Part shown: positions 5,734 to 54,346 of the stretch, in pieces
How positions within the stretch are numbered: the first letter of the stretch is position 1
How the letters are laid out: the number at the start of each line of letters is the position of its first letter
From: Acidimicrobiales bacterium
GTDB lineage: Bacteria > Actinomycetota > Acidimicrobiia > Acidimicrobiales > JAJPHD01
Length of the DNA stretch: 64,000 nucleotides
Direction of reading: 5' to 3'
Assembly (NCBI GenBank): GCA_050744225.1
Contig: JBOGGT010000134.1
Span: forward strand, 4,401 to 68,400
The notes under the pieces: model-generated
Database searches by the model: none
What the model saw: only the letters and a program-made list of their open reading frames with translations
What the model was told of the DNA's origin: nothing
Program-made: the position numbers and the translations under genes

Positions 5734-6717
5734 CTAGAGCCCGAGGGCGGCGGCGCAAGCCGGCCACTGGCCCCAGCCGCTTTGGGCCTGGAGCTGCATC
5801 GCGGCTTGGTCCTGGGTGGTCGGGGACGCGTCGCTTGGAAGCCCCGCGTGTCCGAGCCCGGACCAGGTGGAGGCGGAGAACTGGTAAGCCCCGTAGAAGC
5901 CGTTGCCGGTGTCCGCGCCGTAGTCGCCTCCAGACTCGCACTGACGCAGCTCGGCGAAGTCCCCACCGAGGGAACTGTGCGCCACCGGGGGTGGGGTGCT
6001 GGCCAACGCGACCACCCCGGTGGGGGTCGGGTTGCCCTGTGGTGCCGGAGCGCCGGGGGCTACCTCGGCCGCCACCACCGCTGAGGCCATCTGCTGGACC
6101 TGGGAGAGGGTGGCCTCTTCGTTGCTCAGGGTCACCTGCAGGCTCTGGTTCGCGGAGGCCAGGCTGGCTGCCGCGGACTCGGCGCCGCGCAGCTCACTCG
6201 CCAGGGCGGCCTTCTGGGTGGTGTAGGTGGCCTTGGCGGTCACATAGGACTGCTCGGTGGCCTGGACCTGTCCCGCGGTGGCCTGCAGGTCAACCTGGCC
6301 TATCTCGTAGGAGCTGGTGTCGCCGCCCAGGACGTCCAGCACCTGACTCGGCGCCGTTCCGATATCGACGTAAGCGGCGACCGCCTCGCGCTTGAGCTCA
6401 GTCTTCGACTGCGCGATGACCTGCCCGGCCGAGGCCACCATGGCCCGGGCCTTGGCCTTGGCAGCCTCGAGGGTGTTCACCTTCGCCAGAGCATCCTGGT
6501 AGGCCACGTTCAGCTGGTGTACCCGTGCTGAGTCCGCCGTGATCTGGGCCGCCAGTGCCGCCACCCTGCTGCTGCCCGTCTGCGCCGACGCAGCCGGGAT
6601 CGGCAGGACGGTCAGCTGGGTCAGCCCAGCCACCACCAGGACGGCAAGCACCGACAGACGACTCCTGGCGACCCTGCCCCCAGCGCCAGCCCGAGATCTC
6701 CCCCCTGCAAGGTGCAC
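5734..6717 (-). CDS. resuscitation-promoting-factor (Rpf)-type transglycosylase with N-terminal coiled-coil module
   Basis: Signal/TM segment and a long coiled coil. The C-terminal Rpf domain reads LRQCESGGDYGADTGNGFYGAYQFSASTWSGLG...QDQAAMQLQAQSGWGQWPAC. Confidence 0.8.
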   Translation of the reverse strand: MHLAGGRSRAGAGGRVARSRLSVLAVLVVAGLTQLTVLPIPAASAQTGSSRVAALAAQITADSARVHQLNVAYQDALAKVNTLEAAKAKARAMVASAGQVIAQSKTELKREAVAAYVDIGTAPSQVLDVLGGDTSSYEIGQVDLQATAGQVQATEQSYVTAKATYTTQKAALASELRGAESAAASLASANQSLQVTLSNEEATLSQVQQMASAVVAAEVAPGAPAPQGNPTPTGVVALASTPPPVAHSSLGGDFAELRQCESGGDYGADTGNGFYGAYQFSASTWSGLGHAGLPSDASPTTQDQAAMQLQAQSGWGQWPACAAALGL

Positions 6718-6843
6718 AACGCCCTCGATGATAGACCCTCTGGGGGATCTTCGCCAAAATTGACCGACTCCGCCCTTTAGCCAGCGGATATACCCGCCGG
6801 ATGGCGGAAAGACCTCGGCGGAAAGACCCCCGCGGAGAGGCCT

Positions 6844-7863
6844 TTAGGCGATGGCCGACGCGAAGGAGAGGTTGAAAGGTGTCGCCCCGGATACCGGGAG
6901 ATGTACCGCCGCTCCGTCCAGCGACACCTGGACATTTCCTGGGTCCCCGAGCCGGACCCAAATCGAGCCCCTTGCCTTGAGGGTCTTGGCGACGCCTGCC
7001 TGAAGGACACCTTGGTAGAGGGTGGTGAAACTGGTCGCACTGGGCTTGGCCTCGACCCAGCATGGCCCGGTGACCATCAGTGCCAGGGTCAACTTCGACG
7101 ACGACACCTGGTACGTCGCGCTCCCCGACCCGGTGGACAGCTGGGTAACAGTGGTCTGGGTGGCGGCGGATGGCGGTGTGGAAGGTACCGAGGTCTGCGA
7201 ACCTGGGCTCTTGGCCGCCAACGAGGCATGGGGGGAATGAACCGAGACGGATGGGGACCCGCTCAGGCCAAACCCGACGCCGAACCCGACCCCAAGCCCG
7301 ATCACAGCCAACCCAGCGGCCACCGCCCCCAACGTCTTGTACCGCCGCCCGCTACTTGACCTCGGCCGGGCGAAGCCGGTCGGGGCTAAGGGCCTCGGGA
7401 CCAGGGGACTCGACGGGCCGGTCGGGCCGATCGGGGCGAGGCGGGGCGGGCTTGTAGCCCCGCCGGACAACGAACCCGCGGGCGGGGGCGGCGCCGAAAC
7501 CGGACCAATCCACACGATGCCAGTGTCGGCTAGCGGTAACCGCGACGCCAGCACCGCTGGTCTTGGGGCCGGAACCTGGCGACCCGCCACGAGGCCCGAC
7601 TCAGCGCCCCTCCCGAACAAGTGTGCCCCTTCGGCCGGGTCCTGCGATTCCGGGTCCTGCGATTCCGGGTCCTGCGATTCGAGGGCTTCGACCGGCGGCA
7701 CCACACCGTCCTTGCTGCGCTCCGCCATGCTCGCCAGCACCGCCATCGTCGCCCCGTGACTGTTCACGGACCCTCCCACCCGGCGCCAGGGCCGGCGCAC
7801 CAGGAGCGCTGGCACGCCGAAGACCACCACCACCAAGGCGACGATGATAAAAAAGCTCGCCAT
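6844..7863 (-). CDS. membrane protein with C-terminal DUF4115 (RodZ C-terminal-like) domain
   Basis: Two TM segments and a Pro-rich linker with ESQDP x3. The C-terminus (TLALMVTGPCWVEAKP...IWVRLGDPGNVQVSLDG) resembles the RodZ C-terminal domain. No N-terminal HTH. Confidence 0.6.
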   Translation of the reverse strand: MASFFIIVALVVVVFGVPALLVRRPWRRVGGSVNSHGATMAVLASMAERSKDGVVPPVEALESQDPESQDPESQDPAEGAHLFGRGAESGLVAGRQVPAPRPAVLASRLPLADTGIVWIGPVSAPPPPAGSLSGGATSPPRLAPIGPTGPSSPLVPRPLAPTGFARPRSSSGRRYKTLGAVAAGLAVIGLGVGFGVGFGLSGSPSVSVHSPHASLAAKSPGSQTSVPSTPPSAATQTTVTQLSTGSGSATYQVSSSKLTLALMVTGPCWVEAKPSATSFTTLYQGVLQAGVAKTLKARGSIWVRLGDPGNVQVSLDGAAVHLPVSGATPFNLSFASAIA

Positions 7864-7991
7864 CCTTCGCTAAGCCTCTCTTCTGCTCCTCACTTCTGAG
7901 CTGTACCTACCCATTCAAGCGAACTTTGGACCTCTTTTGTCGTCGCCCAACAGACCCTGGGCCCCAACAGACCCTGGGCCCCGACAGGCTC

Positions 7992-8543
7992 CTAGGTCCG
8001 CAGGCCACACACGGGGCGTCGCCCCGCCGGGATAGACCCCCGAGCCGGGTTGGCCCGGTCCCGCGCCGAGACTACCGGGGCACTCACCCCCCAGTCCGCC
8101 CCCACCTCGGGGTCGTCCCAGGCCACACCCAGCTCATCCGCCGGGTTGTAGTAACCGTCGACCAGGTAGGTGAGCGTCATGTCCGTGAGGGCCACGAAAC
8201 CATGGGCCACGCCGGGCGGGATGAACACCCCCAGCTCGTGGATATCGCCGATCTCCACCACCAGCGTGGCACCGTCGGTGGGCGACCCGACCCGCAGGTC
8301 GTGCAGCACCACCCGCGCCCTGCCCCAGGGCACGTACCAGTAATCGGCCTGGTGCAGGTGGTAGTGCAGCCCGACCAGCGCCCCGGCCTCCTTGTCCGAC
8401 CGGCTCGCCTGCACCATCTCCCGGCCCAGCGGGAACCACGACCGGCGGTAGGTCTCCACGAACCGGCCCCGTTCGTCGGCGTGCACGGTGGGAGCGACCA
8501 CCATCACATCGGCAATTACTTCCGAGGCTGTGATGGTCGTCAC
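7992..8543 (-). CDS. rmlC: dTDP-4-dehydrorhamnose 3,5-epimerase
   Basis: DERGRFVETYR...GLHYHLHQADYWYVPWGRARVVLHDLR...GVFIPPGVAHGF cupin motifs typical of RmlC. Confidence 0.85.
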   Translation of the reverse strand: MTTITASEVIADVMVVAPTVHADERGRFVETYRRSWFPLGREMVQASRSDKEAGALVGLHYHLHQADYWYVPWGRARVVLHDLRVGSPTDGATLVVEIGDIHELGVFIPPGVAHGFVALTDMTLTYLVDGYYNPADELGVAWDDPEVGADWGVSAPVVSARDRANPARGSIPAGRRPVCGLRT

Positions 8544-8554
8544 GCCTCCTCACG

Positions 8555-9376
8555 CTAGTCCGAAATTGCGGCCTCCATCAGGGCGATGTAATCCTCCAAC
8601 GCTGCCGCGATAAAAGCCTCTGCGTGCCCCCGCCCCATGAGCCCATGGATCGAGCGCCAGCGGGCCAGACCCAGGGCCGCGCTCACGTCGAAGGCCAGGT
8701 GGGCGGTGACGTGCGCCTCCAGGGCCCGGCGCTTGCGGTCGAGCACCTCCGAGATATCCACTATGCGGTTGGCGGGCAGGGGGGTCCAGGTCTCGTAGCC
8801 CCAGACCTCCAGGTTCCCCGGCGCTCCCGCCCGGGCGAGTGCGGCGCTGAGTGCCCGGTGGTCAGGGTGGTCGTCCAGCCACCAGGGCAGGAACACCACC
8901 TCCGGCGCCAGCTCGGCCACCAGGGAGCTGATCGCCGCCGCCAGCGCCGGCACCTGATCGGTGAGGCCCCCGTCCGCCAGCCCCAAGAAGCGCGGCGAGC
9001 CAGCCCCGATCACCCGGCACGCCGCCTCCGCCTCACCCCTGCGCAGGGCGCCGGTCTCCGCCCTGCTGAGCGCGGACCCACGCGTGGCCTCCCCGTCGGT
9101 GGCGAACACCACCCGCACCTCTGCCCCGGCGTCGGCCAGCAACGCCAGGGTGCCCGCTGCTCCCACGCTCTCGTCGTCGGGGTGCGCCGCCAGCACCAGC
9201 ACCCTGGCGAACGCCGGCCGGCCCACCACCGGCCCGGGTCCGGCCAGCGAACGCAGGCTGAGCAGCACCGGCCAGGCCCCCTCCGGCACCACCGGCTTGG
9301 CCCGTGCGATCGCCCGCGCCACCACCCCCCTGGCGGCAACCGCGGGACGGGAGTGGGCACGGCGGGTGAGGAACAC
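8555..9376 (-). CDS. PIG-L/LmbE family deacetylase
   Basis: VLVLAAHPDDESVGAAGTLALL...VVFATDGE...HPDH motifs. Confidence 0.8.
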   Translation of the reverse strand: MFLTRRAHSRPAVAARGVVARAIARAKPVVPEGAWPVLLSLRSLAGPGPVVGRPAFARVLVLAAHPDDESVGAAGTLALLADAGAEVRVVFATDGEATRGSALSRAETGALRRGEAEAACRVIGAGSPRFLGLADGGLTDQVPALAAAISSLVAELAPEVVFLPWWLDDHPDHRALSAALARAGAPGNLEVWGYETWTPLPANRIVDISEVLDRKRRALEAHVTAHLAFDVSAALGLARWRSIHGLMGRGHAEAFIAAALEDYIALMEAAISD

Positions 9377-9393
9377 GGGGGAAGATTACTTAA

Positions 9394-10407
9394 TTAATGT
9401 GCCGCAGTGCGCCGGACCGAGCGGGCCACCCCCGCTCCCACCGCCCCCACCGCCAACCACACCAGCTCCCAGGCCAGCTCCCAGGCCCGCCAGGCAACCG
9501 CCAGCACCAGTGCGTCGCCCGCCCCGAAGCGTGACTCCAGGAGCACCACGAACATCGCCTCGCGCACCCCGATGCCCGCCGGGCTGATCGAGAGAACCCC
9601 GACGATTGAGGCGCCTTGCACCGCCCCGGCCAGGAGGAACGCATCGCCGGGGTGGACTGTGACCATCCCCGCGGCCATGAGCACGAAGGCCGCGGTCTTG
9701 GCCGCGGTGCTCACCCCGTAGAGGCCGGCCGAGCGGTACAGGGCGGCCGGCGAGCGCCCCATGCCGGCCAGGGCGGGCGCCCGGGCCATCAGCCGGGGCA
9801 CGACCCGGGGCGCCGCCGCCGACGCCAGCCGCATCCCCCAGGGCAGGGCGACCACCACCGCCGCCCCCGCCAGGCCAACCAGGACCCGGGCCGGCACCGG
9901 CAACAGCCTCGACGGGAGGAACACCCCGGTCACCACCGCCCCCCAGGCCAGTAGCACCCCCAGCTCGATCACGTTGCTGGTGGCCCCCAGCGACCTGGCC
10001 ACCCCGGCCCGCCCGGCCAGCACCTCCCGGGAGACCACCTGGAAGGCGCCGGTGGGCAGGTAGCGCCCGGCCTGAGCCCGCCACCACACCCTCACCGCCA
10101 CCGCCCGGCCGATCACCGCCCCCCAGGCGGCCAGCATCGAGCGCCACCCGAGCGCCAGGAGCAGCCCACTGGCGAGGCTGCACGGGACCGCCAGCACCAG
10201 CCAGCCGGCGTGCAGGGCGACGTGCACCCGCCCCAGCGCCCCGAAGTTGTCATAGGCCGCCCGGGCGAGCAGGCCCGCCACCGCCACCACCAGGACCAGC
10301 CCGGCCACCCGAGCCCAGCGCCCCCTCGCCCCTTTGATTAATCGTCCCCCCTGCCCCCGCGCACCCGCTCCCGCTCCCGCCGGTTCCACCCCGTCGGCGC
10401 CGCTCAC
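9394..10407 (-). CDS. flippase-like / lysylphosphatidylglycerol-synthase TM-region family membrane protein
   Basis: Polytopic protein of about 8 TM segments; the N-terminal pattern (GARGRWARVAGLVLVVAVAGLL...LGWRSMLAAWG) is typical of the UPF0104/LPG_synthase_TM family. The GTG start overlaps the upstream stop (GTGA). Confidence 0.65.
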   Translation of the reverse strand: MSGADGVEPAGAGAGARGQGGRLIKGARGRWARVAGLVLVVAVAGLLARAAYDNFGALGRVHVALHAGWLVLAVPCSLASGLLLALGWRSMLAAWGAVIGRAVAVRVWWRAQAGRYLPTGAFQVVSREVLAGRAGVARSLGATSNVIELGVLLAWGAVVTGVFLPSRLLPVPARVLVGLAGAAVVVALPWGMRLASAAAPRVVPRLMARAPALAGMGRSPAALYRSAGLYGVSTAAKTAAFVLMAAGMVTVHPGDAFLLAGAVQGASIVGVLSISPAGIGVREAMFVVLLESRFGAGDALVLAVAWRAWELAWELVWLAVGAVGAGVARSVRRTAAH

Positions 10408-40160: not shown

Positions 40161-40733
40161 TCAGGCTGGTCCGAGGAGCCCTTCGACGCTCAGCGTCACC
40201 GTGGGCAACGCCCCGACTACCAGGGTCTCGTCCCGGCGGGCACGACGGGCATTGGCGTAGCCGTCAGGCCGCGGGTCGCCGAACACCCGGATCTCCATGG
40301 CGTTCACATCCACCACCCACAGCTCGGGAACGCCGGCTCGGGCGTAGCGGGGCGCCTTGAAGCTCACGTCCCAGTTGAGGGTGGAGTCCGCCACCTCGAC
40401 GACGAGGAAGGCATCGCTCGCCGACGGGGCACGGCCTTCCCATGAATCGAGGCCGGGGTGCAACAGGGCCAGGTCGGGCTCGGGCTCGGAGTAGTCGTCC
40501 AGCTGGAGCGGGCACTGAACCGAGACCAACGCCTGCTCCCCCACCGCGTGGACGAACAAGTGGTTAAGGCGCATCACGCAGACGTGGTGAGGATGAGCCA
40601 TCGCTGCCATCTGGAATACCTCCCCGTCGATCAGCTCGAGGTGGGAGTCACCCTGGAAGAGCCCGGCCTCCCCCATGCGGCGCCACTGCTCCACGCTGAA
40701 GGCGTAACGGGTCGAGGCCTGGTCGAGCGCCAC
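40161..40733 (-). CDS. Uma2 family (DUF820) restriction-endonuclease-fold protein
   Basis: YAFSVEQWRRMGEAGLF...LELIDGEVF...PEPDLALL...FLVVEVADS...K...ELWVVD pattern (PD-(D/E)xK-like E-V-x-D/S..K). Confidence 0.8.
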   Translation of the reverse strand: MALDQASTRYAFSVEQWRRMGEAGLFQGDSHLELIDGEVFQMAAMAHPHHVCVMRLNHLFVHAVGEQALVSVQCPLQLDDYSEPEPDLALLHPGLDSWEGRAPSASDAFLVVEVADSTLNWDVSFKAPRYARAGVPELWVVDVNAMEIRVFGDPRPDGYANARRARRDETLVVGALPTVTLSVEGLLGPA

Positions 40734-40789: not shown

Positions 40790-42178
40790 ATGAGTGCGGG
40801 CCAGTCGGCTGTGTCAGGGCCAGGTGGGCAGGACCCGGGCCGGCGGGTGGTGGTGGTCGGCGCGGGCTTCGCCGGGCTGGCGGTGGCCTCGGAGCTGGCG
40901 GGCGCGGCGGTAAGCGTGACGCTGGTCGACAGGCACCACTTCAACACATTCCAGCCTTTGTTGTACCAGGTGGCCACCGCCGGGCTGAACCCCGGGGACA
41001 TCGCCTACCCGGTTCGATCCTACGTGAAGGCGTACCCGGCGACCGACTTCCGCCGGGGCGTGGTGAGCGGGGTGGACCTGGGGGCTCGGGTGGTGTGCTT
41101 CGAGGACGGGGGGACGCTGGGATACGACTACCTGGTGTTGGCGGCGGGCGCGACAACCAACCACTTCGGCGTCCCCGGAGCGGTCGAGCACAGCCGGGCG
41201 ATCTACACCATGGAGGACGCCCTGGCGGTGCGTTCCCAGATCTTCAACCTCCTGGAGGCCGCCGCCGCCCGGACACTGGACGGCTCGGCGAGTGGCGGGT
41301 CGGCGAGGGACGGGTCGGCGAGTGGCGGGTCGGCGAGTGGCGGGTCGGCGGCCGGGCTGACGGTGGTGGTGGTCGGGGGCGGGCCGACCGGGATCGAGAT
41401 GTCGGGCACGCTCGCTGAACTGCTGGCCATGGAGCTTGGCACGGCCTACCCGGACCTCTCCCCCGACGAGGCGCAGGTCATGCTGGTAGAACAGTCTGAC
41501 CGCCTGCTGGCGGCATTTCATCCCAAGCTGGGCCGATACGCCGAGCGGGTGCTGCGGCGCCTGGGAGTGGAGGTGCGCCTCTCCCAGGCGGTTACCTCAA
41601 TCGAAGAGGGCAAGGTGACCCTGTCGTCGGGTGAGGTGATCGGGTGTGGCCTGGTGGTCTGGGCGGCAGGGGTTGGGGCCGGGCCTCTGGCCGCTTCCCT
41701 GGACGTCACCAAGGCCCGCGGCGGCCGCCTCGCGGTGGGTCCGGACCTGCGCCTAGTCGGCCAGGACTCGGCCTTCGCCATCGGGGACATGGCCGGGGCA
41801 CTAGCCGAGCCCGGCGGGTCGGGCAGGTCGGCTGCCGGGTCGGGCAGGTCGGGCGGGGCGCTGCTGCCCCAGCTGGCCCAGCCCGCCATCCAGGAGGGCC
41901 GACACGCGGGGCGCCAGATCCGCCGGCTGATGGAGGGCTTGGACACTGTGCCATTCGCCTACCACGACAAGGGCACCATGGCCACCATCGGGCGCCGCGC
42001 CGCAGTGGCGCAGCTGCCCGGCGGTATTCGCCTGTCGGGCACCGCGGCCTGGCTCGCATGGCTGGGACTGCACCTGGTCACCCTGGTAGGGTTCCGCAAC
42101 CGGGCATCGGTCCTGTTGAACTGGGCCTGGCGCTATGCCTCCTGGCACCGCGGAACCCGGGTGATCGTGGGCGATTAG
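40790..42178 (+). CDS. ndh: type II NADH dehydrogenase (NDH-2) family FAD-dependent oxidoreductase
   Basis: Dinucleotide folds VVVVGAGFAGL and VVVVGGGPTGIEMSG, plus WAAGV...AIGD. Carries Gly/Ser-rich tandem-repeat insertions at 41282-41356 and 41815-41850. Confidence 0.85.
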   Translation: MSAGQSAVSGPGGQDPGRRVVVVGAGFAGLAVASELAGAAVSVTLVDRHHFNTFQPLLYQVATAGLNPGDIAYPVRSYVKAYPATDFRRGVVSGVDLGARVVCFEDGGTLGYDYLVLAAGATTNHFGVPGAVEHSRAIYTMEDALAVRSQIFNLLEAAAARTLDGSASGGSARDGSASGGSASGGSAAGLTVVVVGGGPTGIEMSGTLAELLAMELGTAYPDLSPDEAQVMLVEQSDRLLAAFHPKLGRYAERVLRRLGVEVRLSQAVTSIEEGKVTLSSGEVIGCGLVVWAAGVGAGPLAASLDVTKARGGRLAVGPDLRLVGQDSAFAIGDMAGALAEPGGSGRSAAGSGRSGGALLPQLAQPAIQEGRHAGRQIRRLMEGLDTVPFAYHDKGTMATIGRRAAVAQLPGGIRLSGTAAWLAWLGLHLVTLVGFRNRASVLLNWAWRYASWHRGTRVIVGD

Positions 42179-42204: not shown

Positions 42205-42442
42205 GGACCCAGCAACGCGTCCACGCTGAGGCGAAGCCTGGTCAGGTGGTTGACGCAGACGAAGCGCGGGTGGCCAATGGCGTTCGTCTCGAATGTCTCC
42301 CATCGATCAGCTCGACCAGCGAGTCCTCGTCGAGAAGGCCGACCTCGGCAATGAGGTGCCATTCCCTCACGCTGAAGGCGTAGCGGCGGGGAGCCTGGTC
42401 AATCAATGTCGCCAGCTTATTGCGCACCCCGTGGGCTCGCAT
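42205..42442 (-). pseudogene. Uma2 (DUF820) remnant, frameshifted with large internal deletion
   Basis: RRYAFSVREWHLIAEVGLLDEDSLVELIDG, then a shift to ETFETNAIGHPRFVCVNHLTRL, joined directly to a C-terminal-like RLSVDALLGP. Confidence 0.5.
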
Positions 42443-42461: not shown

Positions 42462-42808
42462 GTGTATAGCGAGCTAGAGGAGCTCGCCGGCTCCGTGTTT
42501 GTCTGTCCAGTCGGCGAGCTCACCCAGCTCCACTCCGCTCGTTCCGCTGGCCATACGACCAACTCAAGGCGGACCTCCGCCTCAGCTTCGAAGAGGCCGT
42601 GCCCCCTCCAGGAATCTTTGAACTCGCCCTGCATCTGCAGCGCGATCTCGCCCATCACCACGGGATGTGGCACAGGGTCCCAATCCCCGACCTGCTGATT
42701 GCAGAGACCGCGATCGCAAGAGGGCTCGGCTTGGTCCACGTTGATCGGGACTTCGATCGCATCGCCGAGGTACGACCGCTGGTGGTTCGACGCCTTGGGG
42801 CCAGGTAG
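42462..42808 (+). pseudogene. PIN-domain (VapC-like) toxin remnant, 5'-truncated and frameshifted
   Basis: The C-terminal half is clear (PIPDLLIAETAIARGLGLVHVDRDFDRIAEV). The upstream part is in another frame, the N-terminal Asp motif is absent, and no antitoxin gene is present. Confidence 0.5.
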
Positions 42809-43295: not shown

Positions 43296-44009
43296 ATGGC
43301 GGCCGATATAGGGGCTGGGTCCGGCGCGCTAGAGGTCCGAGCCGCGCTGCGCAAGCTGCTCCGTGCACTACCCGAGCCCATGCGAGTCGAAGCAGAGGCG
43401 GCCCAGGGGGCTGTGGTGGTGGACCCCGCTGTGTGGGGACGCCGCTCCGCCCCAGCTCGGCCCACGCCGCACCTCGACGTACTCCAACAAGCGGTTGTGT
43501 CCGGCGTGCAGGTCAGCCTCGACTACATCGCGGCCGACCGGACTCCCAGCAGTCGGGTAGTACATCCTGTGGGCTTGGTGGCCAAAGGCCAGGTCTGGTA
43601 CCTGGTGGCGTCCACCAGCGAGGGCTTGCGCAGCTTCCGGGTGGACCGCGTGGCCTCGGCGTCGCCGAACGGGGAACCCGTGGTGCGCCCCGAAGGATTC
43701 AACCTGCGCTCCACGTGGGAAGTGATAGTGGGCGAGGTAGAGGAGCGAAGGTCGGCATTCCGGGCGCGCGGGCTCCTCGACCCGACGTTTGTGGGGCTGT
43801 TCCGAGCCTTGCTCGGCACCCGGGTCAGCATCGGACCCCCCGCGGCCGACGGTCGGGTGGAGGTGGAGGTGGGCGGGCACGGGACGGATTCGCTGGCTGG
43901 CGAGCTGGCGGGGTTCGGAGCCGCCCTGGAGGTGATCGAGCCTGCCGAGGTCCGTGAGCGTCTAGCCCTCATCGGCACCGAGCTAATAGAGCGTTACGGT
44001 GTCCCGTAA
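43296..44009 (+). CDS. WYL-domain protein (WYL + WCX-like C-terminus) lacking the usual N-terminal HTH
   Basis: SLDYIAADRTPSSRVVHPVGLVAKGQVWYLVASTSEGLRSFRVDRV (WYL), with C-terminal GAALEVIEPAEVRERL. It is about 80 aa shorter at the N-terminus than YafY/PafBC-type regulators. Confidence 0.7.
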   Translation: MAADIGAGSGALEVRAALRKLLRALPEPMRVEAEAAQGAVVVDPAVWGRRSAPARPTPHLDVLQQAVVSGVQVSLDYIAADRTPSSRVVHPVGLVAKGQVWYLVASTSEGLRSFRVDRVASASPNGEPVVRPEGFNLRSTWEVIVGEVEERRSAFRARGLLDPTFVGLFRALLGTRVSIGPPAADGRVEVEVGGHGTDSLAGELAGFGAALEVIEPAEVRERLALIGTELIERYGVP

Positions 44010-44031: not shown

Positions 44032-44268
44032 CTATTTGCGGAAGGCGTCCCTGACCTTTCCGCCAGCGTCCCTGACCTTTCCGCCAGCGTCCTTGACCTT
44101 TCCGCCAGCGTCCTTGACCTTCTCGACGGCCTGCTTGAGCTCCCCTCCGGTACGGTCGAGCGTCCCCTTGTCCTCGAGTGACTTATCGCCTGCGGCTCTG
44201 CCAACACCCTCCTTAGCGCGACCCTTCAAGACCTGTGCCTTGGCCTTGGCTTTTTCCGCGATACCCAT
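44032..44268 (-). CDS. CsbD family stress-response protein with C-terminal KV(K/R)DAGG x4 repeat
   Basis: GRAKEGVGRAAGDKSLEDKGTLDRTGGELKQAVEKVKDA. A 21-bp x4 tandem repeat lies at 44045-44128. Confidence 0.8.
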   Translation of the reverse strand: MGIAEKAKAKAQVLKGRAKEGVGRAAGDKSLEDKGTLDRTGGELKQAVEKVKDAGGKVKDAGGKVRDAGGKVRDAFRK

Positions 44269-44349: not shown

Positions 44350-46689
44350 CTAATCAGACGCGGCCTCGAACAACGACAGTGCCGCCAGCCGGTCCATGGG
44401 TCTGTTGTCCTGGCCACAGTTGCGGTCATAGACGCAAGAGGGACATCCGTTCTTGCAGTGGCAGTCCCGCAGGAGCCCGGTGGTCAGACTCACGAGGCGC
44501 TCGAAGCTCTCGAATGCCCGCTCTGCGATCCCGATGCCGCCTGGGTAGGCGTCGTACACGAAGATCGCCGCGCCGCCCACCCCTGCGTGGTGCGTGCTGG
44601 ACATCCCCCCGGCATCGCCCCGATCGCACATCGCCAGCAGAGGCAGCATGTGGACCAGGGCGTGTTCCGCGGCGTGCAGCCCGCCTGCAAAGTCCCGACC
44701 GGGCGCAGCGGAACCCGGCCGAACAGCGGGGTCCGTCGGTTCTGCCGGGTCCGTCGGTGAAGCCAGGTACGTCGGTGCTGCCAGGTACGTGGGTGCTGCC
44801 GCAGACCTGATTTCGGCCGCTGTCTCGGGTGCAAAGGAGAGCCAGAGCGCCACCGTGTCCATCTCCACCGGCGGAAGGTCCAGCGCATGGGTACCCAGCG
44901 TGCGGTCTCGCAACTTGAGCCGGAAGGCATAGAAGCGCTGGCTCGTCCTCACCTCCCCAAGGCACAGCGTTGCCCGTCCGACCGATCGACGCCGACGTTC
45001 GGCGAGCACCTGGATCGAGGTGCTCCCGAGCACCTCGGTGTGGTTATCGCTGCGCTCAACGCCCACCTCGGCCACCCCAGCATCCAGGTCCAAGGCCGCT
45101 ACCCGGTAGCTGCTCCCCCGGTGCAAGATGATGGCTCCGGGGTAGGCCGAGGCCAGCGCCCGCCCGGTAGACATGGTCTCCAACAGGCGTTCTCCGCAGC
45201 GGACCTGCACCGAGCTGTCCTCCACCGCATCCAGGCGGACCTTCCCGGCCGGGCGGAAGGTCCCGTGAAACGCCCAGCCCATAGGGGTCTGCACCAACAG
45301 GCCCTCGTCGGATAGGAGCTGCACCGCCGCGGACATCCCCGACCCAAAGTGGTCCTCGTCTCTGTCGCAGAGCGGCAGCTCGGCGGCTGCACACATGACC
45401 TGGCCGGACAGGATGTAAGGGTTGCGCAGGTCCACCACCGCCTGCTCGTGCGGCTTGGCGAACAGCTCGCCAGGATGGGTCACCAGGTATTGGTCGAGCG
45501 GGTCTTCAAAAGCCGCGAGCACGGCTACCGAGGCGGCCCGGACTCGCCCGGCACGGCCGGCCTGCTGCCACATGGAGCAGATCGTGCCAGGATAGCCAGC
45601 CATGACCACGGCCTCCAGTTGACCGATATCGATCCCCAACTCCAGAGCACTGGTCGCAGCGACGCCGGCCAGGGCGCCCCGCCGCAGATCGTCTTCGATC
45701 TGGCGACGATCCGCCGGCTGGTATCCAGCCCGGTAGGCAACAATGGGCTGAGCCGGGGCCGCCTCGGCTGCCCAGCGTGCCACCAGCTCGGCCATACGCC
45801 GCGAGACGGTGAAACATATCGCCTGATGGCCTTCACGGACGAAATGGGCCAGCAGGTCGGCCGCCTGGAGGTGTGCTGAGCGGTCCGGGTTTGCAACGGG
45901 GTTCCAGCAGACAAGGTCCTTGGGGCCCCTCGGGGACCCGTCGCGGTCGATGACCTGGTGCTCCCGGCCCACCAGGGCGTGCGCGTGCTCTGCCGGGTTG
46001 GCGATGGTTCCCGAAGCCAGGATGAATCGGGGTTCTGCGCCGTAGTGGGCGGCGATCCGACGAAGGCGTCTCAGCACCATGGCCACGTTGGATCCGAGCA
46101 CACCGCGATACCAGTGGGCTTCGTCGACCACCACCAGGGCCAGCCCGGACAGGAAGCGCTCCCACAGGTGGTGGCTCGGTAGGTACTCGTGAAGGCCGAA
46201 CGGGTTGGTTATCACCAGCCTCGCCTTAGCCCGGATGCGCGCCCTGCTGGACTGGGGAGTATCGCCGTCGTAGACCCCCGCCGCCGTACGGATGCCGGTG
46301 GCATCCTCCAGCTCTGAGAGCACGGCCAGCTGATCGTTGGCCAGCGCCTTCATCGGATACAGGTACAGGGCGGTCGCGTTGGGATGGTTGTCCAGCCGCT
46401 CCAGGACCGACAGGTTGAATGCGAGAGTCTTGCCCGACGCGGTAGCGGTGGTGAGAATCACGTTTTGCCCGACGCGCACCGCCTCGATGGTCTCTGCCTG
46501 GTGTGACCAGAGTCGGAGCCCTCGTTCGGACAGGTAAGACTCCAGCGCATCGGGAAGGGGCGTTTGCAAGGAGCCCTCCTTCGCTGGCCGAGCCGGCAAG
46601 TGCTCTACATGGGTGATCTGACCCCGGTATCCCGGCATACCCCGCATACCGTCAACCAGGTTCTCGCTGGTCTTAACGGTTGACGACAT
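44350..46689 (-). CDS. MrfA(YprA)/SftH-type SF2 DEAH helicase with C-terminal DUF1998 (MZB) zinc domain
   Basis: Motif I TATASGKT, motif II VVVDEAHWY, motif III ASGT, motif VI QQAGRAGR. DUF1998 part: GLHAAEHALVHMLPLLAMCDRGD...FVYDAYPGGIG...CHCKNGCPSCVYDRNCGQDN. Confidence 0.9.
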   Translation of the reverse strand: MSSTVKTSENLVDGMRGMPGYRGQITHVEHLPARPAKEGSLQTPLPDALESYLSERGLRLWSHQAETIEAVRVGQNVILTTATASGKTLAFNLSVLERLDNHPNATALYLYPMKALANDQLAVLSELEDATGIRTAAGVYDGDTPQSSRARIRAKARLVITNPFGLHEYLPSHHLWERFLSGLALVVVDEAHWYRGVLGSNVAMVLRRLRRIAAHYGAEPRFILASGTIANPAEHAHALVGREHQVIDRDGSPRGPKDLVCWNPVANPDRSAHLQAADLLAHFVREGHQAICFTVSRRMAELVARWAAEAAPAQPIVAYRAGYQPADRRQIEDDLRRGALAGVAATSALELGIDIGQLEAVVMAGYPGTICSMWQQAGRAGRVRAASVAVLAAFEDPLDQYLVTHPGELFAKPHEQAVVDLRNPYILSGQVMCAAAELPLCDRDEDHFGSGMSAAVQLLSDEGLLVQTPMGWAFHGTFRPAGKVRLDAVEDSSVQVRCGERLLETMSTGRALASAYPGAIILHRGSSYRVAALDLDAGVAEVGVERSDNHTEVLGSTSIQVLAERRRRSVGRATLCLGEVRTSQRFYAFRLKLRDRTLGTHALDLPPVEMDTVALWLSFAPETAAEIRSAAAPTYLAAPTYLASPTDPAEPTDPAVRPGSAAPGRDFAGGLHAAEHALVHMLPLLAMCDRGDAGGMSSTHHAGVGGAAIFVYDAYPGGIGIAERAFESFERLVSLTTGLLRDCHCKNGCPSCVYDRNCGQDNRPMDRLAALSLFEAASD

Positions 46690-47905
46690 GATCCCGGGCT
46701 CGAACAGGGTGCGACGCCGGCACCGGAACGGCCGGGGCTGGGGCGTCCAGGGACGGGACGGCCGGGGCCGGGGCCGGGACGGCTGCGGACAGGAGGCAAA
46801 GCAGTCGGGCGACGGCTACCAGGTCGGCGCGATTGTGTTCGATGATCGGGACGAGCGGACCGATGTTCCGGCTCCGCTCGTACTCTCGATAGAAGTGGGG
46901 AACAGCCTCACCCGGAAGGTCATCGAGGTCCCGCGGGGTCCCCAAGACGTGAGCCTCGACCGTACCCAGCCGGCAGTCCTCCAAGCCCGTACCGGCGGCG
47001 GGAGCCGAATCCGCCGAGATCAGCGACGATGGTCGATACAGGCGCCTGACGGGCGGCAACAGGTCCAGGTGGTAGCGAACGGGTAGCTTGCCCAGTCCAA
47101 AGTACGCGCTGCGTTGCGCAAGCCATGGCGCGTCGGCGCTGCGGCCGTTGTAGGTCACCAAGCCTTCGCACTCCCTCAGGACCCCCATTGCCAAGTGGAG
47201 CGCCGCGGGCTCCTCGCTCCCGGCCCGGGCCAAGTACTGGTGAAGCTCCAGGCAGGTGCCGACCAGACGGGCAAAGCCGAACAGGATCATGGACGACCCC
47301 CATAGTCCGAGGGTCTCCAGGTCCACGATGACCAAGCCACCGGGCGCTATCAGGCCAGCCAGGGCCACGCCAGGGTGGTGGCCGAGAGGCCCCAGGCAAT
47401 GGCGGATGTGGTCGTGGAGCACCCCCAGGTCCCGCCGTTCCCAACGTTCGACCAGCCACGACGCTGAGCCTCCGAAGCGATGATGGTCCACCAGGTCGGT
47501 GATCCGACCCACCCCCCCGGCCCTCAGCGCCTCAGAAGTCACCGGACCGACGCCGCAAACCAGCCGAAGCTCGCCGAGCACCGCATCCTCCGCCGCTGCC
47601 GGCGACGCCAGGCTAAACCCAAAGGGCTGCACGAGCTGCACCAGGTGCAAGCACGGCCCGTAGGGGGTCTGGGCCTCCGATACCTCATATAGGTCATCCA
47701 ACGCGACCCCGGCAAAGCGACGGCAGAGCCTGGCCGCCAGCCGCCACCGGTTGAAGCCCTGGCCTCGGTGGTCCTCGCCTCGGTGGTCCTCGCCTCGGTG
47801 GTCCTGGCCTCCGTGGTCCTGGCCTCGGTGGTCCTCGCCTCGGTGGTCCTGGCCTCGGTGGTCCTCGCCCCATTGGGCGGCTGCAGGTCGCTCAGCCGCG
47901 TTCAT
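46673..47905 (-). CDS. YprB/MrfB-like RNase-H-fold (DEDD-type) exonuclease
   Basis: VIVDLETLGL (DxE), LVTYNGRSADAPWL, IEHNRADL (HxxxD). Its ATG at 47905 overlaps the upstream TGA (ATGA). N-terminal DHRG(E/Q) x7 repeat (15 bp x7, 47761-47865). Confidence 0.75.
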   Translation of the reverse strand: MNAAERPAAAQWGEDHRGQDHRGEDHRGQDHGGQDHRGEDHRGEDHRGQGFNRWRLAARLCRRFAGVALDDLYEVSEAQTPYGPCLHLVQLVQPFGFSLASPAAAEDAVLGELRLVCGVGPVTSEALRAGGVGRITDLVDHHRFGGSASWLVERWERRDLGVLHDHIRHCLGPLGHHPGVALAGLIAPGGLVIVDLETLGLWGSSMILFGFARLVGTCLELHQYLARAGSEEPAALHLAMGVLRECEGLVTYNGRSADAPWLAQRSAYFGLGKLPVRYHLDLLPPVRRLYRPSSLISADSAPAAGTGLEDCRLGTVEAHVLGTPRDLDDLPGEAVPHFYREYERSRNIGPLVPIIEHNRADLVAVARLLCLLSAAVPAPAPAVPSLDAPAPAVPVPASHPVRARDHVVNR

Positions 47906-48831
47906 GCGGCCGCCACCGGGATGCCACCAACGAACCGAGGTTGGGCCGCCATCCAGGCGATCCCCGAGTTGCACTGACTCCGGCAGACGCAGGTCCAACA
48001 ATACTCACCGGGGATCTCCGCAACCTGCGAGCCATCCTCCATGCCCGCCAGCGCGATCGCAACCTCCACAACCAGGTCACTCGCGGCTTCCAGGGTCTGG
48101 ACATCCACGTCCTTAGCCAAGACCGTTCCCGAGGACGCCTCGACCCACACCGTCCGGAGTGGAACAAATCCTCGAAATAGTGCGAATGCGAGCACGTCCA
48201 GGCCCTGGACTCCGTCGTTAGGCCGCCCCAGACTGACCAGTACCGCCTCATCGGGCCTCCGTCCAGCTGGTCGGATGACCGAGTCCAGCCGGCCCTTGAT
48301 CACCACCGGACCCCCATAGCCCAAAGGCCGAGCCCAGACGGGACGCTCCACCAGATGGGCCAACGCGAGCTCTGGCCAAGGAACCGCCACCCACCAGCGC
48401 GCCACCCAGGTGGCAACGGCTGCAACTGTCGCTGCTCGCGTCGGACCGTCTTGGGTGGCCAACCACCTGCCCAGAGAGCGACTCTCGCTGATCGCATCCT
48501 CGATCGCCACCGCAACGGTATCCAGCACCCTGAACGAAGGGGCGGGCAGCTGCCTGAGGGCAGCGAGCCCCAGAGTACGGGTGGCGAACTGAACGGTCCA
48601 CTCAAACGGTTGACGTACTCCGCTGGCCGGACACGCCGCCACGCCGAGGCAGTAGCGGTCCACCACTACCTCGACCCCAGGTCCCAGGCTGGCCACAACC
48701 GGTAAGAGACGCGCCGCCAGCCGGCTCCTCAAGGCCGCCACCGCCCCGTGCGTCAGGACAGGCCCGGTTGGCAGGCAGTCGAGGACCGCGGCGCGGACCT
48801 CCTCCTGGTGGGCAGGTAGCTCAGCGCGCAT
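47902..48831 (-). CDS. Cas4/AddB-like PD-(D/E)xK-fold protein with CX2CX5C cysteine cluster, possibly catalytically degenerate
   Basis: KGRLDSVI (motif II Asp), no clear (D/E)xK, C-terminal CWTCVCRSQC plus upstream Cys residues (DRYCLGVAAC). ATG at 48831 (alternative TTG at 48864) overlaps the upstream gene. Confidence 0.55.
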   Translation of the reverse strand: MRAELPAHQEEVRAAVLDCLPTGPVLTHGAVAALRSRLAARLLPVVASLGPGVEVVVDRYCLGVAACPASGVRQPFEWTVQFATRTLGLAALRQLPAPSFRVLDTVAVAIEDAISESRSLGRWLATQDGPTRAATVAAVATWVARWWVAVPWPELALAHLVERPVWARPLGYGGPVVIKGRLDSVIRPAGRRPDEAVLVSLGRPNDGVQGLDVLAFALFRGFVPLRTVWVEASSGTVLAKDVDVQTLEAASDLVVEVAIALAGMEDGSQVAEIPGEYCWTCVCRSQCNSGIAWMAAQPRFVGGIPVAAA

Positions 48832-49999
48832 CGGGCTCCTTGTCCTCAAGGTCCACCGGGCCAATCAGGTCACCGCGCTCGAAGCTGAAGCGGCGCCCTG
48901 GCACGCAGGATGCAATCGCCGGGCACCACGGGCAGAGAGGGTTGGGGTTCGCATGGGCCACACCGCCGTGGGCCAACCGCGCCAGCGAGGCCAGCCCCTG
49001 AGCAATGCGCGCACTCGCCTGCGCCATAAGCTCCGCTGTGACCACGTCCAGCTCCAGCTCGCCGTCGCGCAGGTAGTAGGTCCCGACCTGGAAAGGGGGC
49101 GCCCGATGCCTGAGCGTCTCCAGAACTGCATACCAGCCCGCGTCGGCGCGATCCTCCTGGCGGCGCCGGCCGCTTTTCACATCGACGAGGGTCGCCCCAG
49201 CCACGCCCGCCCCAGCCAAGCCGGCCCCAGCCAAGCCGGCCCCAGCCACGCCCGCCCCAGCCACGAGTGGTGTGGCTCGACCCAGCACCAGGTCAACCCG
49301 TCCGGTCAGCACCACATGCCCTCCGGAAAGCTCCGCCCGCAAGGGCTCCTGCAACCGGACCAGCGCGCTGGAAGGCAAGACCGGCCATGCCTCAAGCGCA
49401 CCCCGGCAGGACTCCACGATGGACGCCGCTTCCGCCTGCTGTTCTGAGGACAGGCCAGCCCAATCGAAACCCAAGCGCTCCTGGCCAGCCGCGGTGGCGG
49501 CCGCGAGCGCGTAGGTCACGAGGTCCCACCCGGGCGTGCCTACGGTCACAGGTCCAAGCGGACTGGCGGTAGTCACCGACCTGAGCGGGTGGCCGACGGC
49601 GACCAAGCCGAAGAGCAGGTCGGCCAAGCGACCCGCCACCAGTGCGGAAGTCGGCGGGTCCGAAGCGTCCAGGCAGGCAACGAGGTGGCGCTCACACGTC
49701 AGGACCTGGCGCAACCGGGTCTTGGTGACCCGCAGAGGCGACCCTCCATCGGGCCATCGGGGCCATGCCCCCACTGCCTCCTCCAGCTCCGCTCGGATGC
49801 GAGCCGCCGCAAACTCGTCAATCGTCGGCCGGATCTGGCCCACCCCTCTCAGCGATTCAAGCAAGGTCTGTGATTTCGGGGATCCCACAGCTCCAAGTAT
49901 GGCCTGAAGCTGTGACAACCCGGTCCCGACAAGGGGGTGGGGAAGGTAAAGCGCGTATAACACTGCCAACCTTCCCCACCCCCTAGCCTCGCAAGTCAT
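48821..49999 (-). CDS. Cas4/AddB-like PD-(D/E)xK nuclease with Fe-S-type cysteine cluster
   Basis: TGRVDLVLG...TLVDVKSG (D...DxK), C-terminal CPWCPAIASC (CX2CX5C) and an upstream Cys (LTCERHLVAC). The start is uncertain: the ATG at 49999 abuts the divergent MOSC ATG, and TTG 49918 or GTG 49888 are alternatives. Confidence 0.6.
   Translation of the reverse strand: MTCEARGWGRLAVLYALYLPHPLVGTGLSQLQAILGAVGSPKSQTLLESLRGVGQIRPTIDEFAAARIRAELEEAVGAWPRWPDGGSPLRVTKTRLRQVLTCERHLVACLDASDPPTSALVAGRLADLLFGLVAVGHPLRSVTTASPLGPVTVGTPGWDLVTYALAAATAAGQERLGFDWAGLSSEQQAEAASIVESCRGALEAWPVLPSSALVRLQEPLRAELSGGHVVLTGRVDLVLGRATPLVAGAGVAGAGLAGAGLAGAGVAGATLVDVKSGRRRQEDRADAGWYAVLETLRHRAPPFQVGTYYLRDGELELDVVTAELMAQASARIAQGLASLARLAHGGVAHANPNPLCPWCPAIASCVPGRRFSFERGDLIGPVDLEDKEPDAR
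49933..49983. promoter_or_regulatory. perfect 15-bp inverted repeat at the head of the nuclease-helicase operon (operator or 5' hairpin candidate)
   Basis: GGGGGTGGGGAAGGT-21 nt (aaagcgcgTATAACactgcca)-ACCTTCCCCACCCCC, 14 nt from the back-to-back start codons at 49997-50000. Confidence 0.4.
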
Positions 50000-50660
50000 G
50001 GCAGCCCCGAGGGTGGTCTCGGTCAACGTCGGGGGTCCGGCCGAGTTGAACTGGCATGGCAGGGTAGTCCGCTCCAGTATCTGGAAGCACCCGGTGGCCG
50101 GCCCAGTACAAGCGACTGGCATCAACCTGGCCGGCGACAGCCAGGCCGACCGCAAGGTGCACGGCGGCCCGGACAAGGCAATCTATGCGTACGCGACCGA
50201 GGACTACGCCTGGTGGCAGGAACAGCTCGGGAAGGAGCTGGAGCTGGCTAGTTTTGGCGAGAACCTGACCACCGGCGGGATTGACCTCACCGAAGCACTG
50301 ATCGGCGAGCGCTGGAGGGTCGGCACCTGCGTGCTCGAGGTGGCGCAGCACCGAACGCCTTGTTACAAGCTGGGCATCCGCCTCGGCGACGACACCATCC
50401 CCGACCGGTTCCTCCAGGCGGGGCGCCCCGGGGCCTACCTGCGCATCGCCGAGGAAGGCAAGCTCAGCGCGGGCGAGGACATCGAGGTGATCTACCGCCC
50501 GAAGAACAGTCTCAGCGTGGGGGCAGTGGCGACCATCATCGCCTCAGCGCCCGAGCGCGCAGCGGAGCTGCTGGAGATCCCTGCGCTGGCAGCTTCGCGC
50601 CAGGCCTGGGCGCGAAGCACGCTCGCCCGCATGGGACTCACCCTCGAAGGCGCCAGTTGA
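49998..50660 (+). CDS. MOSC domain-containing protein (YiiM-like)
   Basis: VVSVNVGGP...IWKHPV...GDSQADRKVHGGPDKAIYAY...GENLTTGGID...RTPCYKLG. Confidence 0.85.
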   Translation: MAAPRVVSVNVGGPAELNWHGRVVRSSIWKHPVAGPVQATGINLAGDSQADRKVHGGPDKAIYAYATEDYAWWQEQLGKELELASFGENLTTGGIDLTEALIGERWRVGTCVLEVAQHRTPCYKLGIRLGDDTIPDRFLQAGRPGAYLRIAEEGKLSAGEDIEVIYRPKNSLSVGAVATIIASAPERAAELLEIPALAASRQAWARSTLARMGLTLEGAS

Positions 50661-50667
50661 CGGGACC

Positions 50668-50800
50668 GGGCGCCGGGCTCAGGCGGGCGCCGGGCTCAGG
50701 CAGGCGCCGGACTCAGGCCGGGCGCCGGACTCAGGCCGGGCGCCGGACTCAGGCGGGCGCCGGACTCAGGCCGGGCGCCGGACTCAGGCAGGCGCCGAGG
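50668..50800. repeat. 17-18-bp x~7.5 tandem repeat (GGGCGCCGGACTCAGGCC-like)
   Basis: Direct reading. It starts 8 nt after the MOSC stop, and its distal end overlaps the 3' end of a small minus-strand ORF. Confidence 0.9.
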
Positions 50801-50966
50801 CGGGCATAGACCAGCCAGCCACCGCCAGCTCCTCCAGCAGGTCCCTCAGGCCACCGGTCTTGAGGTTGCTCATGACCCGGCCGGGGGGGGTCTCGCCTCG
50901 CTCCCACTCAAGCCAGGCGGCCAACAACTTGGCCGGGTCGCAGGGAGGGTGCTCGGTGGTCGACAT
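50784..50966 (-). CDS. small hypothetical protein (60 aa)
   Basis: ATG at 50966 (MSTTEHPPCDPAKLLAAWLEWERGETPPGRVMSNLKTGGLRDLLEELAVAGW...). Coding-like, with no family recognised. Confidence 0.35.
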   Translation of the reverse strand: MSTTEHPPCDPAKLLAAWLEWERGETPPGRVMSNLKTGGLRDLLEELAVAGWSMPASAPA

Positions 50967-50993
50967 GGGCGCGAGCCTAGGCTGCCTGGCACA

Positions 50994-54346
<3,353 letters not shown>

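Follow-up and report, generated by a model that had tools for sequence, protein, structure and literature searches.

A translationally coupled operon joining a Cas4-like protein pair to an MrfB- and MrfA-type exonuclease and helicase in Acidimicrobiales: a candidate DNA-damage repair system

Does a gene cluster that joins a DUF1998 helicase to several nucleases serve to degrade invading DNA or to repair the DNA of its own cell? This question is raised by four overlapping genes, here called A, B, C, and D, in 64 kb of high-GC DNA, referred to below as the window, from a metagenome-assembled genome (MAG) of the Acidimicrobiales (contig JBOGGT010000134.1, positions 4,401 to 68,400). Entries named "MAG: Acidimicrobiales bacterium" at NCBI are 100% identical to window proteins A and B. 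On balance, we lean towards reading the locus as a DNA-damage-inducible repair operon in which helicase D, exonuclease C, and the paralogous Cas4-fold pair A–B act together. The components are themselves of known kinds; what appears to be new is the combination of an MrfAB-type pair with a Cas4-like pair, the A–B family, and its promoter. An earlier note, made from the letters of this DNA alone, had known of no described system that joins an MrfAB-type pair to two Cas4-like proteins, and a literature search likewise found none; nor were the combination, the A–B pair as a family, or its promoter found described in the literature that was available.

Organization of the operon and its four products

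All four genes lie on the minus strand, and a promoter-like motif precedes the first of them, gene A:

44350-46689, minus: gene D, 779 amino acids (aa), MrfA/YprA/SftH-family superfamily 2 (SF2) helicase with a winged helix and a C-terminal MZB (DUF1998) tetracysteine domain
46673-47905, minus: gene C, 410 aa, predicted MrfB/YprB-type DEDDh 3'-5' exonuclease without a tetratricopeptide repeat (TPR) domain
47902-48831, minus: gene B, 309 aa, predicted inactivated paralogue of A
48821-49888, minus: gene A, 355 aa, Cas4-family PD-(D/E)xK nuclease, predicted active, with the 1+3 Cys iron-staple pattern
49896-49917, minus: promoter-like motif TGTCACAG-CTTCAGGC-CATACT, RecA-NDp-like, with its -10-like hexamer at 49901-49896, 7 nt before the GTG of A

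The four open reading frames (ORFs) and the overlaps at every junction that the earlier note had described were all recovered: 11 nt between A and B, 4 nt (ATGA) between B and C, and 17 nt between C and D. In the orthologous loci the corresponding overlaps are 11, 4, and 20 nt (L001) and 4, 4, and 17 nt (L004), while in L003 overlaps of 11 and 4 nt are followed by a 23-nt gap. The overlaps, including the ATGA at the B/C junction in the window, L001, L003, and L004, are thus retained among loci in which B is only 46-57% identical, and the earlier proposal that A-B-C-D forms a single translationally coupled unit is supported by this conservation. One detail required correction. The start of A had been placed at an ATG at 49999, farther upstream than the conserved promoter motif. 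The true start is almost certainly the GTG at 49888 (355 aa), on which the NCBI call (P0006) and the starts of the orthologues agree. This start leaves 109 nt between A and the divergent MOSC gene.

The order A-B-C-D was also found in L001/L002, L003, and L004, and A-B-C was found in L011, whose contig ends there. All are Acidimicrobiales-type contigs. Recurrence across Actinomycetota, for which the earlier note had proposed a test, was not observed: the four-gene order was found on five contigs of this one Acidimicrobiales clade, with none in the other lineages sampled (a genome-collection scan with a narrower A alignment gave 3 loci, and no survey of mrfA/mrfB neighbourhoods across Actinomycetota was made). 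Across these loci, D is 68-78% identical. With identity in B down to the range given above, the four-gene unit is thus old within the clade. Where flanks are available, the position is constant, with MOSC on one side of the operon and NDH2 and IMPDH (in some cases preceded by CsbD) on the other, and with groES/groEL and tsaD on the far side. As judged from this gene order, the operon sits in a fixed housekeeping region and not in a variable island.

Domain and profile searches identify D as a full-length MrfA/YprA helicase, in agreement with the earlier description of an MrfA/SftH-type SF2 helicase with a DUF1998 C-terminus. Pfam models for DEAD (PF00270, 3e-28), Helicase_C (PF00271, 2e-14), WHD_HRQ1, and MZB (PF09369, 1.4e-20, residues 674-753) all match, and the CHCKNGCPSC…C motif of the MZB/DUF1998 tetracysteine domain is visible in the sequence. 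Against the sequence of the Bacillus subtilis YprA structure (6znp), D aligns over residues 27-619 and a second stretch with an E value of 1.2e-126 and 427 bits, whereas PADLOC models touch just its helicase core at about 130 bits. The best NCBIfam model is the actinobacterial TIGR03817 (DECH helicase), which scores 696 bits, below its trusted cut-off of 874.1, in a match broken into two stretches by a window-specific repeat insertion.

The neighbouring gene C, adjoining D in the window and equally in L001, L003, and L004, encodes the probable exonuclease partner. RNase_H_2 (PF13482) matches at 2e-21, and alignment with MrfB (8un9; E 1.3e-10) pairs the DLET, SAD, and HNRAD of C with the FDTET, AFD, and HNEMD that carry the DEDDh catalytic residues, which bears out the earlier assignment of C as an MrfB-like exonuclease. 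No TPR domain was matched in C by Pfam, and the protein ends about 40 residues past the exonuclease core; the Pseudomonas aeruginosa homologue likewise lacks a TPR. An alignment of orthologues revealed a conserved N-terminal region holding a stretch that resembles a helix-hairpin-helix (HhH) motif, LRLVxGVGPVTxEALRAGGV, read by eye and undetected by Pfam. A metagenome scan with the C alignment returned zero relatives. In Bacillus, MrfA and MrfB interact and share one mitomycin-C repair pathway (10.1101/426304), and the authors of the MrfB study leave space for "any other unknown partners" (PMC11194089).

Such partners might be sought in A and B. Pfam detects PDDEXK_1 in A (5.6e-6; 26.9 bits against a cut-off of 22), and B has no match in Pfam, NCBIfam, or PADLOC. 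Profiles of the A and B families align with each other in hhalign with 94% probability (E 1.2e-7, 257 columns). AlphaFold models reached a pLDDT of 82 for A and 72 for B, and the top Foldseek matches of the A model were ACE1 (probability 1.00, TMt 0.56), Dna2, Cas4, RecE, AdnA, and AddB; the B model matched ACE1, AdnA, Dna2, and Cas4. Similarity to solved Cas4-family members is seen by fold alone, at a TM of about 0.4-0.57, and searches of PDB sequences with A and B profiles gave nothing significant. Each protein also carries the one N-terminal and three C-terminal cysteines by which the Cas4 family is defined (PMC12094033). The profile alignment, the folds, and these cysteines uphold the earlier view of A and B as Cas4/AddB-type iron-staple paralogues, each of which would, on this pattern, bind an iron-sulfur (Fe-S) cluster.

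The two paralogues differ in their active sites. Among the 15 closer homologues of A, residues C65, D199, D236, K238, Y253, and C319/C322/C328 (CX2CX5C) are all invariant; in a wider set of 25 sequences, C65, D199, K238, Y253, and the three C-terminal cysteines remain invariant, and E66 and D236 are present in at least 90%. B retains the motif-II Asp (D183), C67, and C278-X2-C281-X5-C287, and lacks the E, the DxK, and the Y. At the motif-III positions the window protein has S and G and most relatives have V and S; the motif-II position is Asp or Glu. Only A thus keeps D…DxK…Y, as the earlier suggestion of an active/inactive pair had it: A is predicted to be an active Cas4-family nuclease, and B is predicted to have retained the fold and cysteines without the activity.

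The A–B module, its promoter, and the surroundings of the operon

The extent of the B family emerged only from an exhaustive search. A word-indexed search with B found 5 proteins and one with a 93-sequence profile found 6, whereas an exhaustive HMMER profile search revealed 569 representative clusters of the B family at 50% identity, all unnamed and without a Pfam model; of 93 members sampled, 5 reach PDDEXK_1. Wherever the sequence upstream of B is available (about 70 loci), a homologue of A lies immediately before it, and natural A–B fusion proteins keep the same order (P0070, P0080, P0130, P0190-P0192). By these results, A–B is a separate, uncharacterised actinobacterial module, widespread without C and D, which the earlier note had overlooked.

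In 80 loci from soil and peat metagenomes (L015-L094; for example L023:513-9764), the arrangement is Lhr and patatin in one direction and A, B, and TypA in the other. Of the 22 loci with enough flank, 21 have Lhr; patatin is present in 22 of 30 and TypA in 33 of 38. The Lhr protein of these soil and peat Actinobacteria has about 1500 aa and shares a strand with a patatin-like phospholipase, TypA/BipA follows A–B on the other strand, and a small membrane-protein-like gene lies between patatin and the A promoter. In L009, an A'–B' pair diverges from an AdnAB-type operon. L006, L098, and L100 hold A–B at unrelated chromosomal places. The carboxyltransferase-linked loci have an additional gene without a Pfam match after the pair; it encodes 289 aa and overlaps B in one case (L006:6438-7307) and encodes 929 aa in another (L098:6970-9759); these genes may represent other partners of the module.

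Three pairs, in L005, L095, and L097, are carried by mobile elements. In L005 and several related clusters, an M78 peptidase of the IrrE/ImmA type is fused to A; the fusions have about 580 aa (L005:3380-6505; P0019-P0023, P0026, P0030), with a gene for an XRE-type helix-turn-helix (HTH) protein before them and B after them. The L005 element also carries a TrwC relaxase, an integrase, two N6/N4 methyltransferases, and a Prok-E2/ThiF cluster. In L097, a UvrD-like helicase and a 580-aa ATPase with a faint AAA_29 match, possibly Gabija-like, are convergent to A–B (6281-9663, minus); they adjoin a DNA ligase domain gene and an exonuclease VII large subunit gene, and the element has a WhiB gene and an excisionase-type HTH gene.

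A promoter-like motif travels with the pair. When the upstream regions of A were compared in four orthologous loci (window, L001, L003, and L011), only TGTCACAs-N8-CATAmT, 6-7 nt before the start, was conserved, and the rest was not alignable. The pattern TGTCACNN-N8-CANANT had 46 matches on both strands of the 713 kb of all loci, against 0.4 expected from shuffles; all 46 are sense-oriented upstream of A, one of them (L030) outside the automatic distance window. In its general form, TGTCACAs-N8-CAyACT-N6/7-start, the motif precedes A in all contexts except L005 (where the XRE gene comes before the fusion), L013, and L087. The version of the metagenome clade is TGTCACAC-CCCGTGGG-CACACT-6 nt-ATG; elsewhere the motif stands at -29 from the start codon (L095, L097, L006) or at -26 (L011), and L098 and L100 have one mismatch. 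Taken over the 64-kb window by itself, the motif does not reach significance (1 match versus 0.8 expected at 2 mismatches; 5 versus 5.6 for a degenerate pattern), and its weight therefore derives from its conserved position across loci. A generic scan of the operon for sigma-70 promoters and terminators found no promoter and one terminator-like site inside A, within chance. Actinobacterial leaderless transcripts have this layout, with a -10-like hexamer 6-7 nt ahead of the start codon.

The motif resembles RecA-NDp, the promoter by which PafBC activates the LexA-independent DNA-damage regulon (PMC5656591, PMC6789036, PMC8223512). Compared with the RecA-NDp consensus, tTGTCRgtg-8nt-TAnnnT (PMC5656591), the TTGTCAcag-8 nt-cATACT of the window matches in the core, in the spacing, and in A2 and T6 of the -10 hexamer, and it differs at four lesser positions. 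The resemblance is supported by relatives in which the form is closer still: a lone A-like gene in L008 has a canonical RecA-NDp, TGTCGGTG-N8-TACCCT-6 nt-ATG, and in L009 TGTCACAG-GGGGTGCG-TATGGT lies before the AdnAB-type operon and CGTCATAC-GGGGTGCG-TAGGGT before the divergent A'. Further support comes from mycobacteria, in which adnAB and lhr are PafBC-dependent (PMC8682763). The match to the consensus is imperfect, and membership of the operon in the PafBC/RecA-NDp regulon is therefore something that we infer. The twin divergent promoters of L009 (7900-8003) share the identical 8-nt spacer GGGGTGCG, each standing 6-7 nt away from a start codon; adnA there probably begins 11 nt downstream of its annotated start. 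The idea that Lhr shares the exact A promoter was discarded, as the loci with Lhr lack a second copy of the motif.

Around the operon of the window, the flanks had been described in the earlier note as accessory-looking. This holds for the segment at 42.2-44.0 kb, with its decayed Uma2 and PIN fragments and a WYL-WCX gene without an HTH; it does not extend to the setting as a whole, as the segment is absent from the syntenic loci and the operon lies among housekeeping genes. The fragments are short ORFs, read by eye as a decayed Uma2 N-terminus (42242-42442, minus) and a decayed PIN (VapC) C-terminus (42599-42808, plus); the longer ORFs of the segment gave no Pfam match, and an intact Uma2 gene lies at 40161-40733. 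The WYL and WCX protein (43296-44009, plus; 237 aa), convergent to the operon, corresponds to the C-terminal two-thirds of a PafB/PafC-like regulator. Its candidacy as regulator of the operon was rejected because it lacks the N-terminal HTH and is absent from syntenic loci. An ORF of 527-623 aa at 50661-52532 (plus) has no Pfam match, and an unnamed 509-aa gene lies beside MOSC at the equivalent place in L001. GC content at third codon positions (GC3) is 0.74-0.80 in the four genes (44350-50000) versus 0.85-0.93 in many neighbouring core genes, a difference that may stem from low expression or from foreign origin.

Three of the four genes contain in-frame tandem repeats, each specific to the window:

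49193-49265, minus: 15 nt x 4.9 repeat (AGAGV/L), inserted in A between nuclease motifs II and III; pLDDT is low across residues 208-225
47758-47869, minus: 15 nt x 7.5 repeat (GEDHR-type pentapeptides) at the N-terminus of C; Pfam GETHR match
44729-44801, minus: 18 nt x 4.1 repeat (AAPTYL/SPTDPA), inserted in D before the MZB domain

The repeats noted earlier are thus real, but they do not belong to the system as such: none occurs in the orthologues of A, C, and D, and unrelated neighbours carry similar ones, namely NDH2 (40790-42178; in-frame GSASGG-type repeats), the CsbD gene (44032-44268, minus; an in-frame 21-nt repeat at 44045-44145), and the 5' end of the plus-strand ORF at 50661-52532 (50667-50797; 7.5 copies of a 17-nt repeat, not a multiple of three). 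A functional role of the repeats in the system was rejected on these grounds, and repeat expansion within coding regions appears instead to be a general habit of this genome.

Repair, defence, or something simpler

If the operon serves repair, as we are inclined to think, it might work as follows. A single RecA-NDp-type, PafBC-activated promoter 7 nt upstream of the GTG of A would yield a leaderless polycistronic mRNA, on which translation of A, B, C, and D would be coupled via their overlapping stop and start codons. The MrfA-type helicase D would load onto single strands at lesions, gaps, or ends, translocate 3'-to-5', and unwind the duplex, and the MrfB-type DEDDh exonuclease C would digest the 3'-ended strand. 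The Cas4-fold subunits A and B would form a heterodimer with a 4Fe-4S staple in each subunit, in which A alone is catalytic and cleaves the single-stranded 5' strand or flap exposed by the helicase, with B as a non-catalytic partner that guides DNA or provides structure. The two-gene MrfAB excision module would in this way gain a second nuclease of opposite polarity, and the operon would then resemble an AddAB/AdnAB motor-nuclease, or Hrq1-Pso2, divided into separate parts. In this scheme, damage induction, Fe-S binding, the polarity of the nucleases, complex formation, and the substrate are what we infer, whereas the gene structure, the homologies and folds, the patterns of catalytic residues, the conservation of operon, synteny, and promoter motif, and the pairing and fusion of A and B were observed.

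The earlier note had held that repair and defence could not be told apart from the sequence. The RecA-NDp-like promoter, the Lhr and AdnAB neighbourhoods, the similarity of D to MrfA, and the absence of the family from plasmids, phages, and viral contigs now favour a DNA-damage response. Defence against phages or plasmids, in which a YprA-family helicase and nucleases would degrade invading DNA as in DISARM, Druantia, Dpd, and ARMADA, strikes us as improbable. It draws on the fact that YprA-family helicases are core to several defence systems (10.1101/2025.09.15.676423), that Cas4-family nucleases such as ACE1, which acts with pAgo, assist defence (PMC12094033), that A–B copies occur on the three mobile elements, that the GC3 of the operon is below that of nearby core genes, and that A gave a weak match to DruK (E 1.4e-3). 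That match came from a PADLOC check on the four proteins, in which B and C had no match. D, however, is far nearer to full-length MrfA than to the core-only PADLOC helicase models, and a 2025 census of the YprA family puts MrfB-linked helicases in a "repair" branch, with Cas4 or RecB partners unmentioned (10.1101/2025.09.15.676423). The gene content of the locus points the same way, as neither a methylase nor any Drm, Dru, or Dpd gene lies within 10 kb of the operon, and partners of the DrmB/C, Dru, or Brx type are likewise absent. Searches of plasmid and phage collections found no family members, and viral contigs yielded no true members, just remote matches to generic Cas4/RecB exonucleases. 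Moreover, on all five contigs the operon keeps its syntenic place among housekeeping genes, its promoter is of the damage type, and the repair genes lhr and adnAB are neighbours of the pair elsewhere.

Several observations weigh against the repair operon as we have drawn it. C and D stand next to A–B in the clade of the window only; A–B occurs mostly without C–D, and C–D-type pairs exist without A–B, so the four proteins need not form a complex, and shared regulation would suffice to account for the operon. In the largest A–B clade, A too has lost the DxK, the Y, and all cysteines, and the ancestral role of the pair may therefore not be nucleolytic. Some A–B copies lie on integrative or conjugative elements, and the linkage of the pair to Lhr may be synteny inherited among related soil Actinobacteria and not a functional link. 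The motif also departs from the RecA-NDp consensus, with CAC or CAG for gtg after TGTCR and C for T at the first -10 position, and another regulator could thus recognise it. Finally, going by its score, D relates to the TIGR03817 hypothetical equivalog without being a certified member. In a rival account, two independent modules are merely co-transcribed, a self-contained, damage-inducible A–B having acquired mrfB-mrfA downstream of its promoter in one lineage, with shared regulation but no shared DNA intermediate or complex. We consider this account unlikely, though not far-fetched. A–B does lack C–D in most contexts, the C–D homologues function as a two-gene unit in Bacillus, and the promoter motif accompanies A–B and not C–D. 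Yet the ATGA overlap between B and C is kept in all four loci listed above, and coupling of this kind usually means stoichiometric co-production; the four-gene order has survived divergence to 46% identity in B; and the functions of a 3'-5' helicase, a 3'-5' exonuclease, and a Cas4-type single-strand nuclease complement one another. Alternatively, A–B could be mainly a sensor or adaptor for damaged DNA, which binds single-stranded DNA or ends and recruits or activates MrfA/MrfB here, Lhr/AdnAB elsewhere, and, on integrative and conjugative elements, an ImmA/IrrE protease that cleaves an XRE repressor. The conservation of pair, order, and promoter in the largest clade, where neither A nor B has the catalytic residues or the cysteines, speaks for such a role, as do the M78 peptidase–A fusions after an XRE HTH gene in several clusters (P0019-P0023). 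We nevertheless judge it improbable as the main role, since in the clade of the window purifying selection has apparently preserved all catalytic residues of A, an argument that it is a genuine nuclease here.

A broader and more speculative possibility, to which we give some credence but would not commit ourselves, is that A–B is a widespread actinobacterial module for recognition of DNA damage or DNA ends: a Cas4-fold heterodimer, active in some lineages and dead in others, with its own RecA-NDp-like leaderless promoter, that plugs into 3'-5' SF2 or SF1 motors (MrfA, Lhr, AdnAB) and that, when fused to ImmA/IrrE on integrative elements, leads to repressor cleavage. If this holds, the operon would be the first case of a missing partner of the MrfAB pathway written into an operon. 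MrfAB in Bacillus and Lhr in mycobacteria belong to recently recognised pathways of crosslinker and mitomycin repair. For MrfAB, the operon supplies a concrete candidate partner, a predicted iron-sulfur, Cas4-like nuclease heterodimer genetically coupled to MrfB and MrfA, and the same candidate pair lies beside lhr or adnAB in other Actinobacteria. Its regulatory signature, TGTCACAs-N8-CAyACT followed by a leaderless start, is simple and testable, and the ImmA/IrrE–A fusions hint at a way in which certain mobile elements could detect damaged DNA. For annotation, the locus counsels caution: a cluster of a DUF1998 helicase and nucleases is not automatically a defence system.

Comparison with known systems

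The closest counterparts of C and D are MrfA and MrfB of B. subtilis, together with SftH of Mycobacterium smegmatis. D shares with this helicase family the domain order of SF2 motor, winged helix, and MZB/DUF1998 domain with four cysteines, and C shares with MrfB the DEDDh core and its catalytic residues; helicase and exonuclease genes are adjacent and co-transcribed in both settings. The present operon differs in that the exonuclease gene comes first, C lacks the C-terminal TPR and has another N-terminal region, two Cas4-like genes precede the pair, and the promoter is RecA-NDp-like. Mycobacterial SftH has been described without a nuclease partner.

A and B find their likeness in the Cas4 family, which includes CRISPR Cas4, ACE1, AddB, AdnA/AdnB, and Dna2. 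The fold is common to both proteins, and the D…DxK together with the 1+3 Cys pattern (CX2CX5C) is common to A. Characterised members act on single-stranded DNA supplied by a partner, as exemplified by ACE1, a Cas4-family enzyme that needs a partner for this purpose (PMC12094033). The window pair differs in lacking CRISPR, an Argonaute, or a fused motor domain, and in that two paralogues, of which one is inactivated, come together in what looks like an obligate pair.

In overall design, the operon recalls AddAB, AdnAB, and RecBCD, which likewise unite a 3'-5' motor and nucleases that act on either strand, and which use Fe-S-stapled RecB-type nuclease domains and inactivated paralogous modules that serve as structural parts. 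AddB, for instance, carries a dead helicase, and RecC a dead nuclease-like domain. Here, however, the motor is an SF2 enzyme (MrfA) and not an SF1 enzyme (UvrD-like), and the nucleases are separate polypeptides, one of them of the DEDDh type. A parallel also exists in yeast crosslink repair, where Hrq1 is the eukaryotic relative of MrfA; D itself contains WHD_HRQ1. Hrq1 cooperates with and stimulates the 5' nuclease Pso2 in crosslink repair (10.1101/773267). Pso2 differs in having a metallo-beta-lactamase fold in place of PD-(D/E)xK, and the Hrq1 and Pso2 genes do not form an operon.

DISARM, Druantia, Dpd, and ARMADA also associate a DUF1998/MZB helicase with nucleases. From these the present operon is set apart by a helicase that groups with MrfA, by the absence of DrmB/DrmC, a PglX-like methylase, BrxHII, DruA-D/H, and Dpd, and by a setting in the core genome in place of an island.

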